A stretch of DNA of 64,000 bases. It comes from an uncultured Candidatus Saccharibacteria bacterium. Its GTDB lineage: Bacteria > Patescibacteriota > 4484-211 > JAGQKX01. The position numbers and the translations under genes are program-made. Shown here piece by piece: positions 34,346-40,495 of the stretch. The notes under the pieces are model-generated. The model searched no databases. It had not been told where the DNA came from and saw nothing but the letters and a program-made list of their open reading frames with translations. Where the stretch lies: NCBI GenBank assembly GCA_964392315.1, contig CAYMOT010000003.1, positions 67,665-131,664 on the forward strand, read 5' to 3'. Within the stretch, counting starts at the first letter, position 1; the number at the start of each line of letters is the position of its first letter.

Positions 34346-35713
34346 TTATCTCCGTGGAGTGATTACATCTTTTCCTACATATTGTTGGAGAACATCCGGT
34401 ACCCGTACCGAACCATCTGGCTGTTGATACGTATCAAGGATTGCTGCAATGGGACGAGTACTCGTGATCGCAGTCGCCGAAATAGTATGCGGATGTTCTA
34501 GCGAGCCGTCTTCGGTGCGATAACGAATATTGAGCCGCCTTGTATGAAACTGCGCGAGATCCGAATTTGACTGCGTTTCCATCCACGTTTGTTCGCTTGG
34601 CATCCATACCTCCACATCAAATTTACGATATGTGGGCATCCCCACATCCCCTGTGCACATTTCGAGTACATGATAGGTCAGTCCGAGCTCTTGCAGCAAT
34701 TCTTCCTCTATAGCAAGTGCTTCCTGCATGTAATCCTGTGACGTCTGCGGTGTCGTAAAATAAATCATCTCGACTTTATCAAACTGATGTACTCGTTTGA
34801 TGCCGCGCGTATCTCTACCCCAACTCCCCGCTTCACTTCGGAAACACGCAGAAATACCCGCATATTTTAACGCCATGTCGTCGGTTAATTCGAGAATATC
34901 ATCCATATGATACGACACAATCGCTTGCTCTGACGTGCCCGTCAAATAGAGCTGTGTACCATCCTCCACCTTTTCTTCATCAGCCTGTATTGCGTAAATA
35001 CTTGCAACCTCTGAAGGAAAGTACCCTGTACCATACAGCGGACGCTCACGAACGAGTACTGGTGGATACATTGGTGTAAATCCACGCTGTACCAATTTCT
35101 GGAGAGCCAGACTCATGAGACCCCAATAGAGCAACGCCCCTTCGTTTTTGAGATAATAGAATCTGCTACCAGAGACTTTGCCGCTTTTCTGGTTATCAAT
35201 CACGTCAAGACTTTCGGCGATGTCGATATGGTGACGAGCATCAAAGTCAAACGTTTTCTTCTCACCTACGACTTTAATTTCTAAATTACCACTATCATCA
35301 GAGCCTACAGGCATAGAAGGATGGGTGATATTTGGCATCCAATCCATGCGCTCTTGCCACTCTTTTTTTGCAACGTCAAGCTCTGCATCTTTATCGTGAA
35401 TTTGTTGCTTCAGTTGTGTAGCTTGGGCTATCAATTCAGGACTTTTGTCCTGAGCGATTTGCGCAGTAATCGTATTCTGTTCCGCACGAAGGCTCTCAAG
35501 TTCTTGGAGAAGTTTTCTCCGCAACGTATCAACGGCGAGTAATGCATCAACATCAGCTACCTTAGGATCTATCCCACGGTTAATAATATTTTGTTTAAGT
35601 TCTTCGGGATTCTCCCGAATGTATGCAATGTCTAACATGATAAATAAATGTTTGCCATATTCATTTGCGTATTTGCATATTTGTATATATTTACATATTC
35701 TCTTTAGAGCCAT
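34346..35713 (-). CDS. serS: Seryl-tRNA synthetase
   Basis: N-terminal coiled-coil arm, the class II core, and MLDIAYIRENPEEL as the canonical start. The probable true start is at 35638, because the annotated start runs into an upstream TATTTGCR repeat. Confidence 0.85.
   Translation of the reverse strand: MALKRICKYIQICKYANEYGKHLFIMLDIAYIRENPEELKQNIINRGIDPKVADVDALLAVDTLRRKLLQELESLRAEQNTITAQIAQDKSPELIAQATQLKQQIHDKDAELDVAKKEWQERMDWMPNITHPSMPVGSDDSGNLEIKVVGEKKTFDFDARHHIDIAESLDVIDNQKSGKVSGSRFYYLKNEGALLYWGLMSLALQKLVQRGFTPMYPPVLVRERPLYGTGYFPSEVASIYAIQADEEKVEDGTQLYLTGTSEQAIVSYHMDDILELTDDMALKYAGISACFRSEAGSWGRDTRGIKRVHQFDKVEMIYFTTPQTSQDYMQEALAIEEELLQELGLTYHVLEMCTGDVGMPTYRKFDVEVWMPSEQTWMETQSNSDLAQFHTRRLNIRYRTEDGSLEHPHTISATAITSTRPIAAILDTYQQPDGSVRVPDVLQQYVGKDVITPRR
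35646..35700. repeat. TATTTGCR octamer-repeat element
   Basis: catttgcg tatttgca tatttgta tatattta catattct between the serB-like gene and serS. Confidence 0.6.
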
Positions 35714-36366
35714 TCTAACACTGCCTGCAGGTTTGGCGCATTAGTGTAAAACGGTGACCGTGCTTTAACACTCTCCCGCTCAACCACTCCCCCAAATCCA
35801 ATAAACCGATCTACATATTCAGCAGTTTCCAGGTCGGTTACACCATCACCAACAAACGCAATGTGCCGCATCAATTGGAGTGATTCAATTAAATTCTTCT
35901 TACCACCCTCTTCACTCAGTATCTGCTCCGGGCAGATCCCGGTATATGCACCTGCTTCATCAAACGCAAGGTTGATTCCAAATACCCGATCAGTAGGAAT
36001 AGCAAAGAATTCCGCTAAGGCTTGTAATGCCGTTGTGTATGCTCCTGAAACCATATACACATCAACTCCACGATTATGCAAAACATTAACGACTTCTTCC
36101 GCTCCTGGAGTAACGCACTGAATGTATTGCTCGCCAAGCCACTCTATATCCTGTTTATCAGGATGTACAAGATTCAGACGCGCGGTCAGCGATTGCGTGA
36201 ACGGGATATCCCCATCCATACCGCTATTTGTTATCGCAAGCACTTCATCATATACTCCTTTTTTTCGTGCGATTTCCGCAAGGCCTTCGATTGTTACGAG
36301 TGTGCTATCCACATCAAAGACAACTGAATTGAATTGCATATAATAAAAAACCCCTTGTTTCATCAC
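35704..36366 (-). CDS. HAD-family phosphoserine phosphatase (SerB-like)
   Basis: Motif I FDVDSTLV and a C-terminal GDGVTD; the probable start is MQFNSV at 36339. Adjacent to serS. Confidence 0.65.
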   Translation of the reverse strand: MMKQGVFYYMQFNSVVFDVDSTLVTIEGLAEIARKKGVYDEVLAITNSGMDGDIPFTQSLTARLNLVHPDKQDIEWLGEQYIQCVTPGAEEVVNVLHNRGVDVYMVSGAYTTALQALAEFFAIPTDRVFGINLAFDEAGAYTGICPEQILSEEGGKKNLIESLQLMRHIAFVGDGVTDLETAEYVDRFIGFGGVVERESVKARSPFYTNAPNLQAVLEWL

Positions 36367-36601
36367 GTATATCGTGATTCAACAAGGGTCATGAGACGGT
36401 ACCACCTTTTCTTTTGCTCTTCCAGCAGTTTCGGGCTTACCCGGAATAGTTATCGGAAACTCCTTTTCCTATTCTGCTCAAGAGAAGGGAACCCAACCTT
36501 CCATAGTGGTACGTTGGTCATCTCTTGTGGTCTTCTTTGACCGCGCTTTAAAATTACTTACGAACTATACCAAACCGACTTATCCTTCGCAACCGTTCCA
36601 T

Positions 36602-37366
36602 TTATTCATTTCTGTGAGAAACAATACCTACCGTTTCAAGAATATATATTTTTATGAACAACAGCAGAATACCAACAACAATCAAAATACCGTAGAGCGG
36701 AGATAACCCAATCACCCAAGCAATATATGAAACAACCACTGATAAAAGTAATGAACCGTTCGACAGCGCTATAAAAAAAGTCTTTGTATAATGCCCTAGT
36801 GAATGTAATACATGCTTTTGGTCTGTCGTTTTCAATCGAATAAGGGTCATATGGATGATTGGTGGTGCACCTTCGTGTACCAGCACCGGTGTGGCAAACG
36901 ATTCATCCGTTGCCTCAAGTTCGATGTTTTCTGGATCCAAAAATGAAGGCATGCTGTAGTAATTTTTGATTGCCCGTACGAAGTAATCGCCCGGAGTAAC
37001 GTTGAATCCAAACTCACCCAACCTGCTTGTGAATGTCGTCTTTACGACCCGTAAGCTTTTTCGATCAATCAACTCTACCACCGCAAGTGGAATTCGTTTT
37101 CCCGTTTCTTCCTCAGAAACAGTACCCCACACCGGAGCGTCTTGTAAAATGTGAAAGTTTACCAAAAAGCGTTTTATTCCAAACGTGGGTAGATTCCAAT
37201 AATATTTTAACGGTAAGCGAATTTCGATAAGGAGGACCACAAAACCAACCGCAAGCAGTAGTAAATTTATAATAAGAAGCTCACGCTGCAGAAAATCCCG
37301 TATTACATAGTACTGACTGTAGTTTTGAACGTATTGTTGAATTTCTGCCAATAGATCAAGCACCAT
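36602..37366 (-). CDS. Hypothetical membrane protein
   Basis: 254 aa with several TM helices. Confidence 0.45.
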   Translation of the reverse strand: MVLDLLAEIQQYVQNYSQYYVIRDFLQRELLIINLLLLAVGFVVLLIEIRLPLKYYWNLPTFGIKRFLVNFHILQDAPVWGTVSEEETGKRIPLAVVELIDRKSLRVVKTTFTSRLGEFGFNVTPGDYFVRAIKNYYSMPSFLDPENIELEATDESFATPVLVHEGAPPIIHMTLIRLKTTDQKHVLHSLGHYTKTFFIALSNGSLLLSVVVSYIAWVIGLSPLYGILIVVGILLLFIKIYILETVGIVSHRNE

Positions 37367-37386: not shown

Positions 37387-39486
37387 TCAGGACATTTGTT
37401 TGTATACATCTATTAGAAACTGTATATGTTCCTCTATCGTTATGCCCATCAACTCCACACCCCTCATGATTTCTGCTCGATCCACCTTCGCAGCAAACGA
37501 AGCGTCCTTAAACTTTTTCATTGCGGAACTGACTTTCATGTTTTCAAACTTCTCTTCCCGCATGAGAGAATATGCATAGAGTAATCCCGCTAATTCGTCG
37601 GTCGCCACAAGCGTCTTTGCGAGTAAGGTCTGCGGCTGTACTCCGGTACGATGCTGTGCATGCGCTGCAACCGCGTGCCGAAGCGCCTCAGGGTATCCCC
37701 ACTCTTTGAACCAATCCAAGCTTTTGGTTGGATGGTCGTCTGGGTATTGGAAATAGTCCAAATCATGCAGCAATCCTGTTAAGTACCATAAGTCTTTGTG
37801 CATTCCATACTTTTCGGCGTATGCCTCTAGCCCAAGTGCCACCATGCGCGCGTGCAGTCGCTGGTAGGAATCCTGAACGTACTCTTCAAGAAGCGTTGCT
37901 GCTTCTTCACGCGTTGGAAGACCAGTAGCATCTTCCTTCTGAGATGTAATAGTCGGTTTATGCGCTGGTAATATATCGTGATACAATTTTTGCGTGTTTG
38001 CATCGTATTCTGCTTTCATAAGGGGGAATAATGTCCCTTCACGCGCGGTAACGTCCTCAAAAAACCAAAATACCCGCTCACTATGCCCATACCCTGCCGT
38101 AGGTGGCATACCATATTCAAGCATTTCTACATAATCGATATCTAGCATCTGTGCTTCTTCGTCCCCCGTATCCCGCAGAGACTGCTGCTCTACAAAACGC
38201 TCCAGTTGGTCTAATGGATCGTTGAGCTCGCTATATCCATTTGCAAGCTCACTACCTGCTAAGAGTACGTGAAACCGTTGCGTCAAGCGAGGGTCATCTT
38301 CTTGGGATTTTGCAAGCGGTGACATGAACTTTGGCTCATTTACCAAAAATGCTGGCCCGCTTATTGTCTTGCGGATAACCTTCCACAGATTATCAATGAG
38401 TCGATTTCTATTCACATCTCCCGAAAGCACCACGCCTTGTTGTCTTAGAACTTCGGTCATTCGTTCTTCTGAATCTTCAAAGATATCAATGCCAAGCTTT
38501 TCCTGAATCACCGCTACATAGTCGATTTCTTCCCATTCGTCCTGTAAGTCAAAGATGTGCCCACGGGTTTGGAATTTAGTCGTTCCATAGACCTTCTGAG
38601 CGACAAAACGAAACAACTCCTGGGTGAAAGTCATCGCTTTTCGTGAATCCGCATATGCCCAATACCATTCTAGTTGGGTGTATTCTTGTAGGTGCTCGTC
38701 GCTCACCCCTTCGTTACGGAAATTCGGACCTAATGTAAAAATTTTTTCAAATCCTCCGCCAATCAATCGTTTTTGATAGAGTTCGGTTGAGATACGCAGG
38801 TAGAGCGTCTCATCAAGATCGTTATGATAGGTTTCAAAAGGGCGGGCATCAGCGCCTCCGGTTACATGTTCAAGTACCGGAGTCTCCACTTCTACAAAAC
38901 CATTCCGCTGCATAAATTCCCGATTTGCCTGCCAGAACCTCGACTTACGCAAAAACCGCTCCTTCACGTCAGGGTTTATCCATAGGTCTATATACCGCCT
39001 ACGGTAGCGCTGTTCTTTATCCTCTAAATGCACTGGATGAGGACGGAGAGATTTTGTCAGCATCCGAATGGTCTGCGCCAAGACTGATACCTCACCCGTA
39101 CGTGTTTTAGTTACCGTACCATGAACTTCGACAAAATCTCCCAGATCTATCAGATACATATCTTCCCACCCAAGAAATCCTTTTTCATGATCTTCTTGCA
39201 CGGTATCGGTGCGAATATAAATTTGAATTGTTCCTGAGGCATCCTGAAGGTCAGCAAACATAACTGAGCCGTGTTCACGTTGCGCAGTAAGCCGCCCAGC
39301 GACTGTTACTTCTGTGCCCTCTAATACGTCAAATTGTGTGTGAATGTTGTTATTCTCATAGTTTTTTTGAGAATGTGCGGGATACGGATTTATACCAAGT
39401 GCTCTGAGTTTATTGGCATGCGCCAGTCGTGTTGCTCTTTGGTCTACTAACGTGCTACCGGTTGATTGGTCATGCATATGCCCCAT
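37387..39486 (-). CDS. lysS: Lysyl-tRNA synthetase (class II) fused to a C-terminal YqeK-like HD-domain hydrolase
   Basis: 699 aa. OB anticodon-binding domain VTVAGRLTAQREHGSVMFADLQDASGTIQIYIR and the class II core. The C-terminal ~190 aa carry H...HD...H..H...D (RLHARMVALG...LLHDLDYF...RHAVAAHAQHRTG...ATDEL), which aligns with the YqeK HD pattern. Confidence 0.75.
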   Translation of the reverse strand: MGHMHDQSTGSTLVDQRATRLAHANKLRALGINPYPAHSQKNYENNNIHTQFDVLEGTEVTVAGRLTAQREHGSVMFADLQDASGTIQIYIRTDTVQEDHEKGFLGWEDMYLIDLGDFVEVHGTVTKTRTGEVSVLAQTIRMLTKSLRPHPVHLEDKEQRYRRRYIDLWINPDVKERFLRKSRFWQANREFMQRNGFVEVETPVLEHVTGGADARPFETYHNDLDETLYLRISTELYQKRLIGGGFEKIFTLGPNFRNEGVSDEHLQEYTQLEWYWAYADSRKAMTFTQELFRFVAQKVYGTTKFQTRGHIFDLQDEWEEIDYVAVIQEKLGIDIFEDSEERMTEVLRQQGVVLSGDVNRNRLIDNLWKVIRKTISGPAFLVNEPKFMSPLAKSQEDDPRLTQRFHVLLAGSELANGYSELNDPLDQLERFVEQQSLRDTGDEEAQMLDIDYVEMLEYGMPPTAGYGHSERVFWFFEDVTAREGTLFPLMKAEYDANTQKLYHDILPAHKPTITSQKEDATGLPTREEAATLLEEYVQDSYQRLHARMVALGLEAYAEKYGMHKDLWYLTGLLHDLDYFQYPDDHPTKSLDWFKEWGYPEALRHAVAAHAQHRTGVQPQTLLAKTLVATDELAGLLYAYSLMREEKFENMKVSSAMKKFKDASFAAKVDRAEIMRGVELMGITIEEHIQFLIDVYKQMS

Positions 39487-39506: not shown

Positions 39507-39989
39507 TTATTGAGATGTTTTATCGTGGATCTTGACAACCTTATAGAGAATTGTCGTATGCGGAAGTCTTACTTCTACCTCATCACCTGTTTTGAGTCCG
39601 AGCAGTGCTTTTCCAACTGGTGATTCGTAGGAAATTTTGCCGGTAGCAGGGTCAGCCTCTGCTGATCCTACTAACTGGTATACAACGTGCTCGCCGTCAA
39701 TTTCTACCGTAACCATTGCCCCGACATTTATCGTTGTAGAAACGTTTTGCTCAGGGTCAATGACCTTAGCATTTTCCAGTATCTGTTCAATCTCTATAAT
39801 GCGCCCTTCGAGCATCATCTGCTGATCCCGGACATTTTCAAACTCCGGATTATCTTCGAGGTTGCCCTTGCCCCGAGCCTCTTTTACCTGCTGTAACATT
39901 TCAGGTTTATCCTCTTTTGTAAGTTTGTGGTACTCTTGCTTTAATTTGTTATACCCATCCTGGGTAAGATAGTATGGCTCGGTTGACAT
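39507..39989 (-). CDS. greA: Transcription elongation factor GreA family, copy 2
   Basis: 160 aa. N-terminal coiled coil with an acidic tip (GNLEDNPEFE) and a C-terminal FKBP-like domain. Confidence 0.75.
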   Translation of the reverse strand: MSTEPYYLTQDGYNKLKQEYHKLTKEDKPEMLQQVKEARGKGNLEDNPEFENVRDQQMMLEGRIIEIEQILENAKVIDPEQNVSTTINVGAMVTVEIDGEHVVYQLVGSAEADPATGKISYESPVGKALLGLKTGDEVEVRLPHTTILYKVVKIHDKTSQ

Positions 39990-40021
39990 TTTACTTGATG
40001 AATACTATGCAATTTGGCAGG

Positions 40022-40495
40022 TTAGTCAATATGCAATATTTCATACAATACATTACCCCCTGGTGCCTCAACAGAAATTTTATCACCTTTTGTTTTTCCT
40101 ATTAGTGCTGTTCCAATCGGAGATGTCGCTGATATTTTTCCCTGCGTGATATCAGCCTCAGTCTCACCAACAAGCTGATACGTTACTTTATCATTTACAA
40201 TATGTAGCGTCACCACAGACCCTATCCCTACGGTTCCGTCAGAGGTCTTCTCTATGACCTGGGCGTTCTTGGTTAAATCCTCTAGTTCTGCAATCCTGCC
40301 GTCCAGAAATGATAATTTATTCTTCTGAATCTCATACGCCGCATTCTCTTTCAGATCACCCAGACTTCTCATGCTCTCAAGTTCCTTTACTACATGGGGG
40401 CGCTCATTCTTTAATTGTTCTAACTCTCGTTCCAGGTCGTGAAGACCGCTTAGTGTTAGGTGAATTTGAGTTGGTTGTATCGTACTTTTTGCCAT
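40022..40495 (-). CDS. greA: Transcription elongation factor GreA family, copy 1
   Basis: 157 aa with acidic tip GDLKENAAYE; tandem to copy 2. Confidence 0.75.
   Translation of the reverse strand: MAKSTIQPTQIHLTLSGLHDLERELEQLKNERPHVVKELESMRSLGDLKENAAYEIQKNKLSFLDGRIAELEDLTKNAQVIEKTSDGTVGIGSVVTLHIVNDKVTYQLVGETEADITQGKISATSPIGTALIGKTKGDKISVEAPGGNVLYEILHID

Follow-up and report, generated by a model that had tools for sequence, protein, structure and literature searches.

The lysS::HD locus

Within the 64,000-nucleotide stretch of DNA analyzed here (the window), a lysS gene continues into a domain of the HD superfamily, forming a single gene that we refer to as lysS::HD (Table 1). The initial annotation had described one 699-aa open reading frame (ORF) at this position. 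Its frame is indeed uninterrupted, and the strings quoted from its translation are all present in the protein: RLHARM (aa 543-548), LLHDLDY (aa 572-578), ATDEL (aa 628-632), and GYGHSER (aa 465-471); the string AAHAQH occupies aa 607-612. Two tandem greA paralogues are found upstream, the nearer of them 20 bp from the lysS start, and a block of co-directional genes that includes serS lies downstream. The same greA-lysS-HD...serS order is found in WWE3, but there lysS (505 aa) and HD (183 aa) are separate genes. No tRNA or Rfam matches were found in the window, and a search of its 494 segments identified neither a second member of the HD family nor a YqeK.

Table 1. Features of the lysS::HD locus and their positions in the window
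Feature	Position	Strand	Basis
lysS::HD gene, whole	37387..39486	-	Single uninterrupted ORF, 699 aa plus stop
OB-fold anticodon-binding domain (aa 60-143)	39058..39309	-	PF01336 tRNA_anti-codon, 47.7 bits
Class II catalytic core (aa 157-489)	38020..39018	-	PF00152 tRNA-synt_2, 221.6 bits
Motif 2 FRNEG (aa 256-260), within catalytic core	38707-38721	-	
Motif 3 variant GYGHSER (aa 465-471)	38074..38094	-	Alignment to 3A74
Variable inter-domain linker (aa 493-521)	37924..38010	-	Alignment of homologues and model confidence
HD phosphohydrolase domain, predicted (aa 522-699)	37390..37923	-	PF01966 and TIGR00277 above cutoff
greA paralogues, two in tandem, upstream of lysS	39507-39989 and 40022-40495 (span 39507..40495)	-	ORFs; Pfam GreA_GreB on identical contig
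Downstream co-directional genes, whole block	34346..37366	-	ORFs; Pfam families on identical contig
254-aa protein, downstream of lysS::HD	36602-37366	-	ORF
HAD hydrolase, downstream of lysS::HD	35704-36366	-	ORF; Pfam on identical contig
serS, downstream of lysS::HD	34346-35713	-	ORF; Pfam on identical contig

To judge from its sequence, the LysRS half is a complete class II lysyl-tRNA synthetase, and the earlier recognition of a canonical OB domain and catalytic core agrees with the NCBIfam scan of the whole protein, in which both NF001756 (503.3 bits vs a cutoff of 468) and TIGR00499 (460.1 bits vs 427.6) were exceeded. Residues 13-491 align end to end with Geobacillus stearothermophilus LysRS 3A74 (E=5e-111), while the FRNEG sequence of motif 2 and the E470-R471 pair of motif 3 are unvarying in 52 homologues. 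Across 115 homologues, the median identity is 69.7% for the catalytic core and 47.6% for the OB domain. This half is probably a housekeeping enzyme, with lysylation as its predicted activity. Motif 3 had also been singled out as unusual, and the GYGHSER reading is correct; in the alignment with 3A74 it lies opposite GLGIGVDR, with the Arg kept and a gap of one residue. The form G[YFW]G[HQM]SER is found in ~117 of 120 close homologues plus the unfused WWE3 LysRS, and other LysRS-HD fusions have the canonical GxGxGxDR. Thus, we rejected motif 3 as the mark of a degenerate or special LysRS; the variant, which is clade-wide and one residue shorter, is a clade trait that is independent of the fusion and retains the catalytic Arg.

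A flexible and poorly conserved linker of ~30 aa tethers LysRS to the HD domain. In 115 homologues, it ranges from 23 to 63 aa with a median identity of 17.2%, and in the full-length model its pLDDT is 58-71, falling to <50 at aa 510-515. Standalone HD homologues start at an LPTREEA motif just after this linker. As for how widely the fusion occurs in relatives, a question already raised in the initial annotation, the architecture proved to be widely conserved, being common to at least 120 clusters of ~700 aa. More than 115 full-length homologues from many samples, at 52-94% identity, each consist of one ORF, the fusion is present in 21 of 80 species-representative genomes, and the identical 699-aa protein is encoded on an independent Logan assembly contig. 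Split lysS and HD gene pairs do occur in related genomes, and one locus (L022) resembles a frameshifted fusion, but the homologues that keep a single ORF and the identical protein from an independent assembly led us to reject a joining of two genes through sequencing or assembly error, which we consider a negligible prospect. The gene is real and widely conserved in tiny-genome (CPR) bacteria. In public databases, the fusion proteins are annotated simply as 'lysine--tRNA ligase'.

The HD domain and its candidate metal site

The C-terminal HD-hydrolase arrangement reported initially was borne out by domain models. PF01966 HD (aa 545-633) scored 35 bits with the whole protein and 38.7 bits with the C-terminus alone against a cutoff of 22, while the HDIG model TIGR00277 scored 29.3 and 28.2 bits in two scans of the C-terminus (cutoff 27.6) and matched all 34 HD-family members examined. 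The H...HD...H...H...D series is also intact: the candidate metal ligands H545, H574, D575, H585, H609, and D630 are unvarying in 115/115 fused homologues, and the same six are kept in all 34 sequences of alignment A1, most of which are standalone. The HD domain is under purifying selection: its ligands do not vary, and its median identity in the 115 homologues is 56%, compared with 48% in the OB domain and 17% in the linker. A basic motif, KKFKDxxFAAKxDR, is likewise conserved at aa 657-670. The extended H...HD...H...H...D signature serves as the criterion for dinuclear HD sites (PMC8177086), and by this sequence criterion the two extra His residues between the HD doublet and the final Asp (H585 and H609) are unvarying in 115/115. 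The six unvarying residues are therefore diagnostic of a predicted two-metal site.

The AF2 model of the HD domain is all-helical (pLDDT 94.6), and every Foldseek match of significant probability was to an HD domain. The best match was the HD domain of E. coli GlyRS-beta (7eiv_D; E=3.7e-3, TM 0.47, 16% identity), whereas the top TM among solved structures, 0.52, belonged to the c-di-AMP phosphodiesterase PgpH (14-15% identity). Small alarmone hydrolases (TM 0.51) and YpgQ were also among the structural neighbors. As modeled, the domain has no close solved structure (best E 3.7e-3, TM ~0.5), and its substrate therefore cannot be inferred from its fold.

Linkage to LysRS and candidate functions

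The HD family is large, uncharacterized, and distinct from YqeK. It comprises 210 clusters at 50% identity with E<=1e-30 and ~4,000 at E<=1e-3, consisting of ~180-aa HD proteins whose source labels read just 'HD domain-containing' or 'predicted hydrolase (HD superfamily)', and we found no paper on either this family or its fusion to LysRS. Among the 80 species-genome loci, the 21 fusions are joined by another 8 loci in which the gene immediately upstream, on the same strand, is lysS. In CPR, lysS and HD also occur as paired genes that adjoin or overlap, and at several split loci the overlap of the HD start with the lysS stop amounts to 13-35 nt. A fusion of the reverse order, HD-LysRS, is found on 9 contigs (P0318/P0390; LysRS 627 bits). 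Hence, the HD family has been joined to LysRS repeatedly, as a C-terminal fusion, as an N-terminal fusion, and as translationally coupled neighbor genes, and among the top 150 family representatives LysRS is the sole aminoacyl-tRNA synthetase found in aminoacyl-tRNA synthetase fusions. Two nucleotide hydrolases are also partners of the family, in LysRS-NUDIX-HD (P0364) and MazG-HD (P0310) proteins. In addition, the slot between LysRS and HD can hold tRNA_bind (P0120, P0350), the editing-type domain B3/4 (P0350, L029), or DUF2000 (L012, L013, L019, L033, L040). The 3' end of CPR lysS therefore gathers accessory modules (HD, Nudix, tRNA_bind, B3/4, and DUF2000), a collection that bears on translation quality control in minimal-genome bacteria. 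Outside CPR, members of the family stand alone and have no LysRS in the vicinity. An earlier all-vs-all ORF clustering of such standalone neighborhoods was swamped by high-GC shadow ORFs; five hand-picked loci (Caldilineaceae, Lacunisphaera, Rhodothermales, Pelolinea, and Anaerolineales) had no shared neighbors, the genes present being SBP_bac_5, GT2, MlaD, DUF445, SBF, MFS, and PfkB.

LysRS makes Ap4A/Ap4N through the reaction of lysyl-adenylate with ATP or a different NTP. Among the synthetases that produce Ap4A, it has been named the principal one (PMC13627108). We tentatively propose that the HD module functions as a di-metal phosphohydrolase whose substrate, a phosphoester or phosphoanhydride, is generated at, or bound by, LysRS. 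As LysRS by-products, the dinucleoside polyphosphates Ap4A/Ap4N would be the most likely candidates, and in minimal-genome bacteria the fusion would remove this by-product or alarmone where it arises. The repeated LysRS linkage, together with the Nudix and MazG fusions, lends the idea indirect support. Two features of the relatives count against it. The tRNA_bind, B3/4, and DUF2000 modules in the slot point towards tRNA, not nucleotides, and the LysRS-NUDIX-HD protein would have no need of a further Ap4A hydrolase if its Nudix domain cleaves that compound. Furthermore, because non-CPR members are standalone, without LysRS or conserved neighbors, the ancestral substrate of the family need not be LysRS-specific.

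The presence of tRNA_bind, B3/4, and DUF2000 at the same position makes a tRNA-directed role a serious rival, even though we regard it as unlikely. Here the HD module would act on tRNA(Lys) or Lys-tRNA, either as a 2',3'-cyclic phosphodiesterase or phosphatase mending tRNA 3' ends or as a module that binds and positions the acceptor arm in the manner of the GlyRS-beta HD domain. There is precedent for the former in the HD domain of the E. coli CCA-adding enzyme, which has been reported to repair tRNA 3' ends through cyclic phosphodiesterase/phosphatase activity. The latter draws upon the top Foldseek match (7eiv_D), as the GlyRS-beta HD domain binds the tRNA acceptor arm (PMC8464048), yet this match hardly outscores PgpH, YpgQ, and the alarmone hydrolases. 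Moreover, the GlyRS-beta HD domain is without the H-D doublet, whereas all of the ligands are unvarying here, making a purely binding role unlikely. The conserved basic motif and weak matches of 7/34 members to an archaeal Trm56-HD fusion model would also fit a tRNA substrate; however, the Nudix and MazG fusions point to free nucleotides, and members of the family in most phyla stand alone and do not adjoin tRNA genes or tRNA enzymes.

We consider it rather improbable that the HD domain is a general enzyme of nucleotide house-cleaning or salvage whose substrate is a product shared by the fusion partners. Such an enzyme could be a pyrophosphatase, an AMP-cleaving 5'-nucleotidase, or one that hydrolyzes some other signaling nucleotide, for instance (p)ppGpp/(p)ppApp or c-di-AMP, and its co-localization with LysRS would serve just to couple expression or to remove the product. 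LysRS, Nudix, and MazG, each of them a fusion partner, release NMP and/or PPi, the structural neighbors include PgpH, small alarmone hydrolases, and YpgQ, and outside CPR standalone members that lack LysRS linkage are widespread, all of which would suit such an enzyme. On the other hand, AMP and PPi are released by all aminoacyl-tRNA synthetases, yet LysRS was the sole synthetase partner among the top 150 representatives, which speaks for a substrate specific to LysRS. The six-residue dinuclear signature of the family is also unlike the alarmone hydrolases and YfbR-type nucleotidases, which are described as mononuclear (PMC8177086).

Relation to YqeK and other known systems

The initial annotation had likened the C-terminal domain to the YqeK family of symmetrical Ap4A hydrolases (COG1713/TIGR00488) on the strength of a motif-by-motif match. 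This match turned out to be just the generic signature of dinuclear HD sites (PMC8177086), and of the HMMER comparisons proposed with it, PF01966 was above threshold while TIGR00488 had no match to the window protein even at E<=1 in the NCBIfam scan. Only 1 of 34 family members matched TIGR00488, at E=0.05. Similarly, an HMM built from five solved YqeK chains (2O08, 2OGI, 3CCG, 8WMY, and 8JJA) gave the window protein 2.7 bits (E=2.5) among 494 segments, no YqeK was recovered in PDB phmmer and profile searches, and in Foldseek the YqeK chains ranked 10, 15, and 32 (TM 0.36-0.48), behind the unrelated GlyRS-beta HD and PgpH. The two families do share the H...HD...H...H...D pattern and an identical H-to-HD spacing of 29 residues, and hhalign aligned them with 75% probability, but over 51 columns only, from the N-terminal helix to HD, with nothing aligning past the HD motif. 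The later ligands are spaced +10/+24/+21 in the HD family vs +32/+26/+18 in YqeK 2O08. YqeK has a catalytic Lys in its HDxxK motif (K62 in S. pyogenes; PMC11857287), a position taken in the window protein by Y578 and in the 115 homologues by Tyr (76), Trp (34), or Phe (5). A further hint of YqeK kinship came from NF005519, annotated as a nicotinate-nucleotide adenylyltransferase, which matched 28 of 34 members weakly (12-21 bits) over ~45 residues around H...HD (profile positions 186-238 of 361), although RNase Y and Cas3-HD models match the family just as weakly. Given the outcome of the NCBIfam, PDB, YqeK HMM, hhalign, and Foldseek comparisons, we rejected YqeK membership as highly improbable. 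We are very confident of the overall anatomy, which is that of a real fusion with an intact HD site that is not YqeK.

Under the reading proposed above, the HD domain would probably act as an Ap4A hydrolase from outside the YqeK family. It is possible, if somewhat doubtful, that the LysRS-linked HD proteins constitute a third bacterial Ap4A/Ap4N hydrolase family, unrelated at the family level to ApaH and YqeK, which CPR bacteria and, as a separate event, a Bacteroidota-like lineage have joined to the main Ap4A synthase by fusion or by translational coupling. It has long been debated whether Ap4A is a genuine alarmone or instead a damage metabolite produced by aminoacyl-tRNA synthetases. If the proposal is correct, a synthetase to which the hydrolase of its side-product is permanently attached would be strong natural evidence for the clean-up view. 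A third family of this kind would amount to a built-in 'damage pre-emption' device that destroys Ap4A where it is made, and it would argue that Ap4A in these organisms is a by-product for removal, not a signal. Whatever the substrate, the strong Rosetta-stone link to LysRS provides an experimental handle on a large uncharacterized HD family.

Among known systems, YqeK resembles the HD family in being a small all-helical HD domain of ~180 aa with a six-residue dinuclear-type pattern, and both the Firmicutes YqeK, a symmetrical Ap4A/Ap4N hydrolase, and the HD family are plausibly tied to Ap4A, with LysRS as the partner here. They differ in their C-terminal halves, that of the HD family carrying KKFKDxxFAAKxDR, and homology is undetectable past the first ~50 residues. 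Gene context also sets them apart, as the YqeK gene is typically next to nadD, while that of the HD family is lysS. The Nudix (RppH/NudH-type) and ApaH Ap4A hydrolases are candidate functional analogues with folds unrelated to HD. We know of none fused to LysRS in characterized systems and found no report of one in the searchable literature, although the LysRS-NUDIX-HD relative does carry a Nudix domain between LysRS and HD. PgpH is listed as having a dinuclear HD site (PMC8177086), but it carries a 7-TM receptor module rather than a synthetase, and we saw no sign in this analysis of cyclic dinucleotide substrates for lysS::HD.

GlyRS-beta, like the fusion, has an HD-fold module attached to an aminoacyl-tRNA synthetase; however, its HD doublet has been lost and replaced by Ser393/Lys394 (PMC8464048), whereas H574-D575 and all of the other candidate ligands are unvarying in the fusion. 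We therefore rejected a GlyRS-beta-type non-catalytic module with a degenerate doublet, and the unvarying ligands would imply catalysis, unlike the GlyRS-beta HD domain. Mycobacterial LysX likewise combines a LysRS core with a second enzyme that uses a LysRS product, and the LysRS part of the window protein scores 409 bits with the LysX model NF002821, far under its cutoff of 742. In LysX, the second enzyme is an N-terminal membrane transferase (an MprF-like lysyl-phosphatidylglycerol synthase), whereas here it would be a C-terminal HD hydrolase, and the metabolite presumed to be coupled to LysRS in lysS::HD differs from that of LysX.

LysRS and HD modules of the fused gene

The lysS::HD gene encodes a protein that scores above the curated cutoffs of two NCBIfam LysRS models (NF001756, 503 vs. 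468; TIGR00499, 460 vs. 428), and its C-terminus exceeds the cutoffs of both the Pfam HD model and the NCBIfam HDIG domain model (29.3 vs. 27.6 for the latter). The presence of LysRS and a C-terminal HD domain within one ORF, as proposed in the initial annotation, was therefore borne out, and all of the sequence strings quoted there were found in place. The LysRS part is complete. GC content and skew are even along the whole gene. The full-length AlphaFold model (pLDDT 87.2, pTM 0.73) has two confident domains separated by a low-confidence linker, which is consistent with a flexible tether.

Coordinates of the lysS::HD gene, its domains, its neighbors, and related fusion loci
Feature	Position	Strand	Basis
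lysS::HD ORF, 699 aa, uninterrupted	37387-39486	-	ORF reading
OB anticodon-binding domain	aa 60-143		Pfam
Class II D/K/N catalytic core	aa 157-489		Pfam
HD domain PF01966	aa 545-633		Pfam, 35 bits full protein; 38.7 bits C-terminus alone; gathering cutoff 22
greA paralogue, 160 aa	39507-39989	-	
greA paralogue, 157 aa	40022-40495	-	
254-aa ORF	36602-37366	-	
LysRS-NUDIX-HD fusion P0364	L086:1362-4169		
HD-LysRS fusion P0390/P0318	L084:5001-7148		
Overlapping LysRS and HD frames	L022:3418-5552		

A search with the full protein recovered the same architecture in at least 120 clusters of ~700 aa (52-94% identity; source names Roizmanbacteria, Woesebacteria, Dojkabacteria, WWE3, and 'Patescibacteria group'), while an independent Logan assembly carries an identical protein with the same neighbors, and together these rule out an artefactual fusion. 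In an alignment of 115 full-length homologs, median identity was 69.7% for the catalytic core, 56.2% for the HD domain, 47.6% for the OB domain, and 17.2% for the linker, which is 23-63 aa long. H545, H574, D575, D577, H585, H609, D630, E631, K657, and R670 were identical in all 115. These regional identities and invariant residues show that purifying selection acts on the HD module, and its active site appears intact.

Motif 3 of the LysRS reads GYGHSER. In alignment with the G. stearothermophilus enzyme (GLGIGVDR), it is one residue shorter and retains the invariant Arg. About 117 of 120 close homologs have G[YFW]G[HQM]SER, and an unfused WWE3 LysRS has a motif of the same type (GYGHAER). 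In other LysRS-HD fusions, motif 3 is the canonical GxGxGxDR, such that HD fusions are found on both variant and canonical backbones. The variant is a clade trait that is not tied to the fusion, and it does not indicate a loss of function.

The two greA paralogues lie in tandem immediately upstream of lysS::HD; a related WWE3 locus (L001) has only one greA upstream of lysS. The 254-aa ORF is located 20 bp downstream, before a HAD hydrolase gene and serS; it contains hydrophobic segments, and its sole match, to CarboxypepD_reg, is weak. ARAGORN found no tRNA genes in the window (1-64000), and no Rfam family reached its gathering score in the 64 kb.

Family membership of the HD domain

When used alone as a query, the C-terminal 192 aa found 457 proteins, the best of which are standalone ~180-aa proteins of 50-65% identity with source names of 'HD domain-containing protein', 'predicted hydrolase (HD superfamily)', and 'putative nucleotidyltransferase with HDIG domain'. 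An exhaustive profile search for this HD family gave 3,994 representatives at E≤1e-3 and 210 at E≤1e-30 (50% clustering), most being 180-200 aa. The HD domain model is all-helical and of very high confidence (pLDDT 94.6), yet it has no close counterpart among solved structures, with no Foldseek match at E≤1e-3. GlyRS-beta of E. coli gave the best match through its HD domain (E=3.7e-3, TM 0.47), followed by PgpH (TM 0.52), YpgQ, and small alarmone hydrolases, with YqeK lower in the list.

The initial annotation had described the domain as YqeK-like, a putative Ap4A hydrolase, through a motif-by-motif match. This match is generic, because H...HD...H...H...D marks any dinuclear HD site, including those of YqeK, PgpH, HD-GYP, Cas3, and oxygenases (PMC8177086). 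The YqeK model TIGR00488 did not match the window protein at E≤1 and matched 1 of 34 HD family members (E=0.05). NF005519 matched 28 of the 34, at 12-21 bits vs. a cutoff of 315 and over ~45 residues around H...HD; RNase Y and Cas3-HD models matched equally weakly. YqeK was also absent from the results of PDB sequence and profile searches. Five solved YqeK sequences were taken from the PDB and aligned; the resulting HMM gave the window protein 2.7 bits (E=2.5, 494 segments), and the hhalign alignment of the HD family profile to YqeK spans just 51 columns (75% probability), starting at the N-terminal helix and stopping at HD. The catalytic lysine of YqeK sits in HDxxK (PMC11857287), a position occupied by Tyr, Trp, or Phe in the LysRS-HD homologs. 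The later ligand spacing differs as well, being +10/+24/+21 after the HD motif in the window family vs. +32/+26/+18 in the YqeK structure 2O08 (by the ligand numbering of PMC8177086). YqeK identity was rejected on all of these counts. The domain belongs to the HD superfamily but falls outside the YqeK family; its signature is of the dinuclear type and it is predicted to be catalytically intact. Of the original interpretation, the HD domain and the fusion stand, while the YqeK assignment falls.

Linkage to LysRS and other partners

We surveyed 80 species-representative genome loci encoding HD-domain relatives for LysRS. HD was fused to the LysRS C-terminus in 21, lysS was directly upstream of the HD gene on the same strand in 8, and no LysRS was found within the available flank of 51, 6 of which are cut at the upstream edge. 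These 51 are mostly from Thermoleophilaceae, Caldilineaceae and other Chloroflexi, Opitutaceae/Lacunisphaera, and Rhodothermales; standalone homologs outside CPR, compared at five loci, had no conserved neighbors and gave no functional hint. A WWE3 genome has the gene order of the window with LysRS and HD as separate genes (greA-lysS(505 aa)-HD(183 aa)...serS). In several split CPR loci, lysS and the HD gene share 13-35 nt at their junction, the HD start lying ahead of the lysS stop, which suggests that the two genes are translationally coupled. A reverse-order fusion (P0390/P0318), with N-terminal HD and C-terminal LysRS (627 bits), is present on 9 contigs. Since a neighboring gene encodes a Por_Secre_tail domain, which is typical of Bacteroidota, this fusion is probably an independent event in a Bacteroidota-like host. 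Among the best 150 HD family representatives, every aaRS fusion is to LysRS. Thus, the HD family has been coupled to LysRS repeatedly and independently, either physically or genetically.

At L022, LysRS and HD lie in different reading frames that overlap by 112 nt. The gene is probably a fusion interrupted by a frameshift, either through a sequencing error or because it is a pseudogene. Some MAG contigs with CPR-type LysRS-HD genes or close HD homologs (L006, L007, L035, L041, L042, L044, L045, L062, L032; P0024) have doubtful-looking taxonomic labels ('uncultured Gammaproteobacteria', 'Pseudomonadales', 'Saprospiraceae', 'Weeksellaceae'), which were not relied upon.

Further modules accompany the pair. 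The triple fusion P0364 (LysRS-NUDIX-HD) is known from one 6.7-kb contig. Its gene contains 17 in-frame TGA codons and terminates at TAG, so its host has recoded TGA (code 4 or 25) and the gene is not broken. P0350 is LysRS-tRNA_bind-B3/4-HD and P0120 is LysRS-tRNA_bind-HD. Just before the HD gene, the LysRS of five split loci (L012, L013, L019, L033, L040) has DUF2000 (90-100 bits), a domain with a peptidyl-tRNA-hydrolase-II-like fold, at its C-terminus, and that of L029 has B3/4 (85 bits) there. In CPR, the 3' end of lysS seems to be a favored site for the addition of accessory modules. Outside the window, the 310-aa P0310 (IMG name 'predicted hydrolase (HD superfamily)/phosphoribosyl-ATP pyrophosphohydrolase') joins a MazG nucleoside-triphosphate pyrophosphohydrolase to the same HD family.

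Candidate functions and known systems

Known HD enzymes act either as phosphohydrolases or as oxygenases (PMC8177086), and the HD domain is predicted to hydrolyze a LysRS-linked substrate with a phosphoester or phosphoanhydride bond, for which Ap4A/Ap4N and tRNA(Lys) would be the LysRS-specific phosphorylated candidates. Reaction of lysyl-AMP with an NTP yields Ap4A/Ap4N, and LysRS is their main source (PMC13627108). The Nudix and MazG partners point to free nucleotides. Of three ranked options, we tentatively place Ap4N hydrolysis first, since it would account for the specificity for LysRS and for the Nudix and MazG partners; Ap4A hydrolysis by the domain is plausible, though unproven. The tRNA_bind, B3/4, and DUF2000 partners point to tRNA, and a tRNA-directed phosphoesterase ranks second as a less likely candidate. 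A general nucleotide hydrolase ranks third and seems improbable.

LysRS-HD proteins are already in public databases with precomputed Pfam domains, named just lysine--tRNA ligase; no paper on either the fusion or the HD family turned up in our literature search. The HD domain is unlikely to serve only as a structural tRNA-binding module, as that of GlyRS-beta does, because the metal ligands are invariant in the window family, whereas GlyRS-beta HD has lost the H-D doublet (PMC8464048). LysRS-HD brings a testable functional hypothesis of possible importance, and it combines two known kinds of protein, namely aaRSs that carry an appended domain and HD hydrolases.
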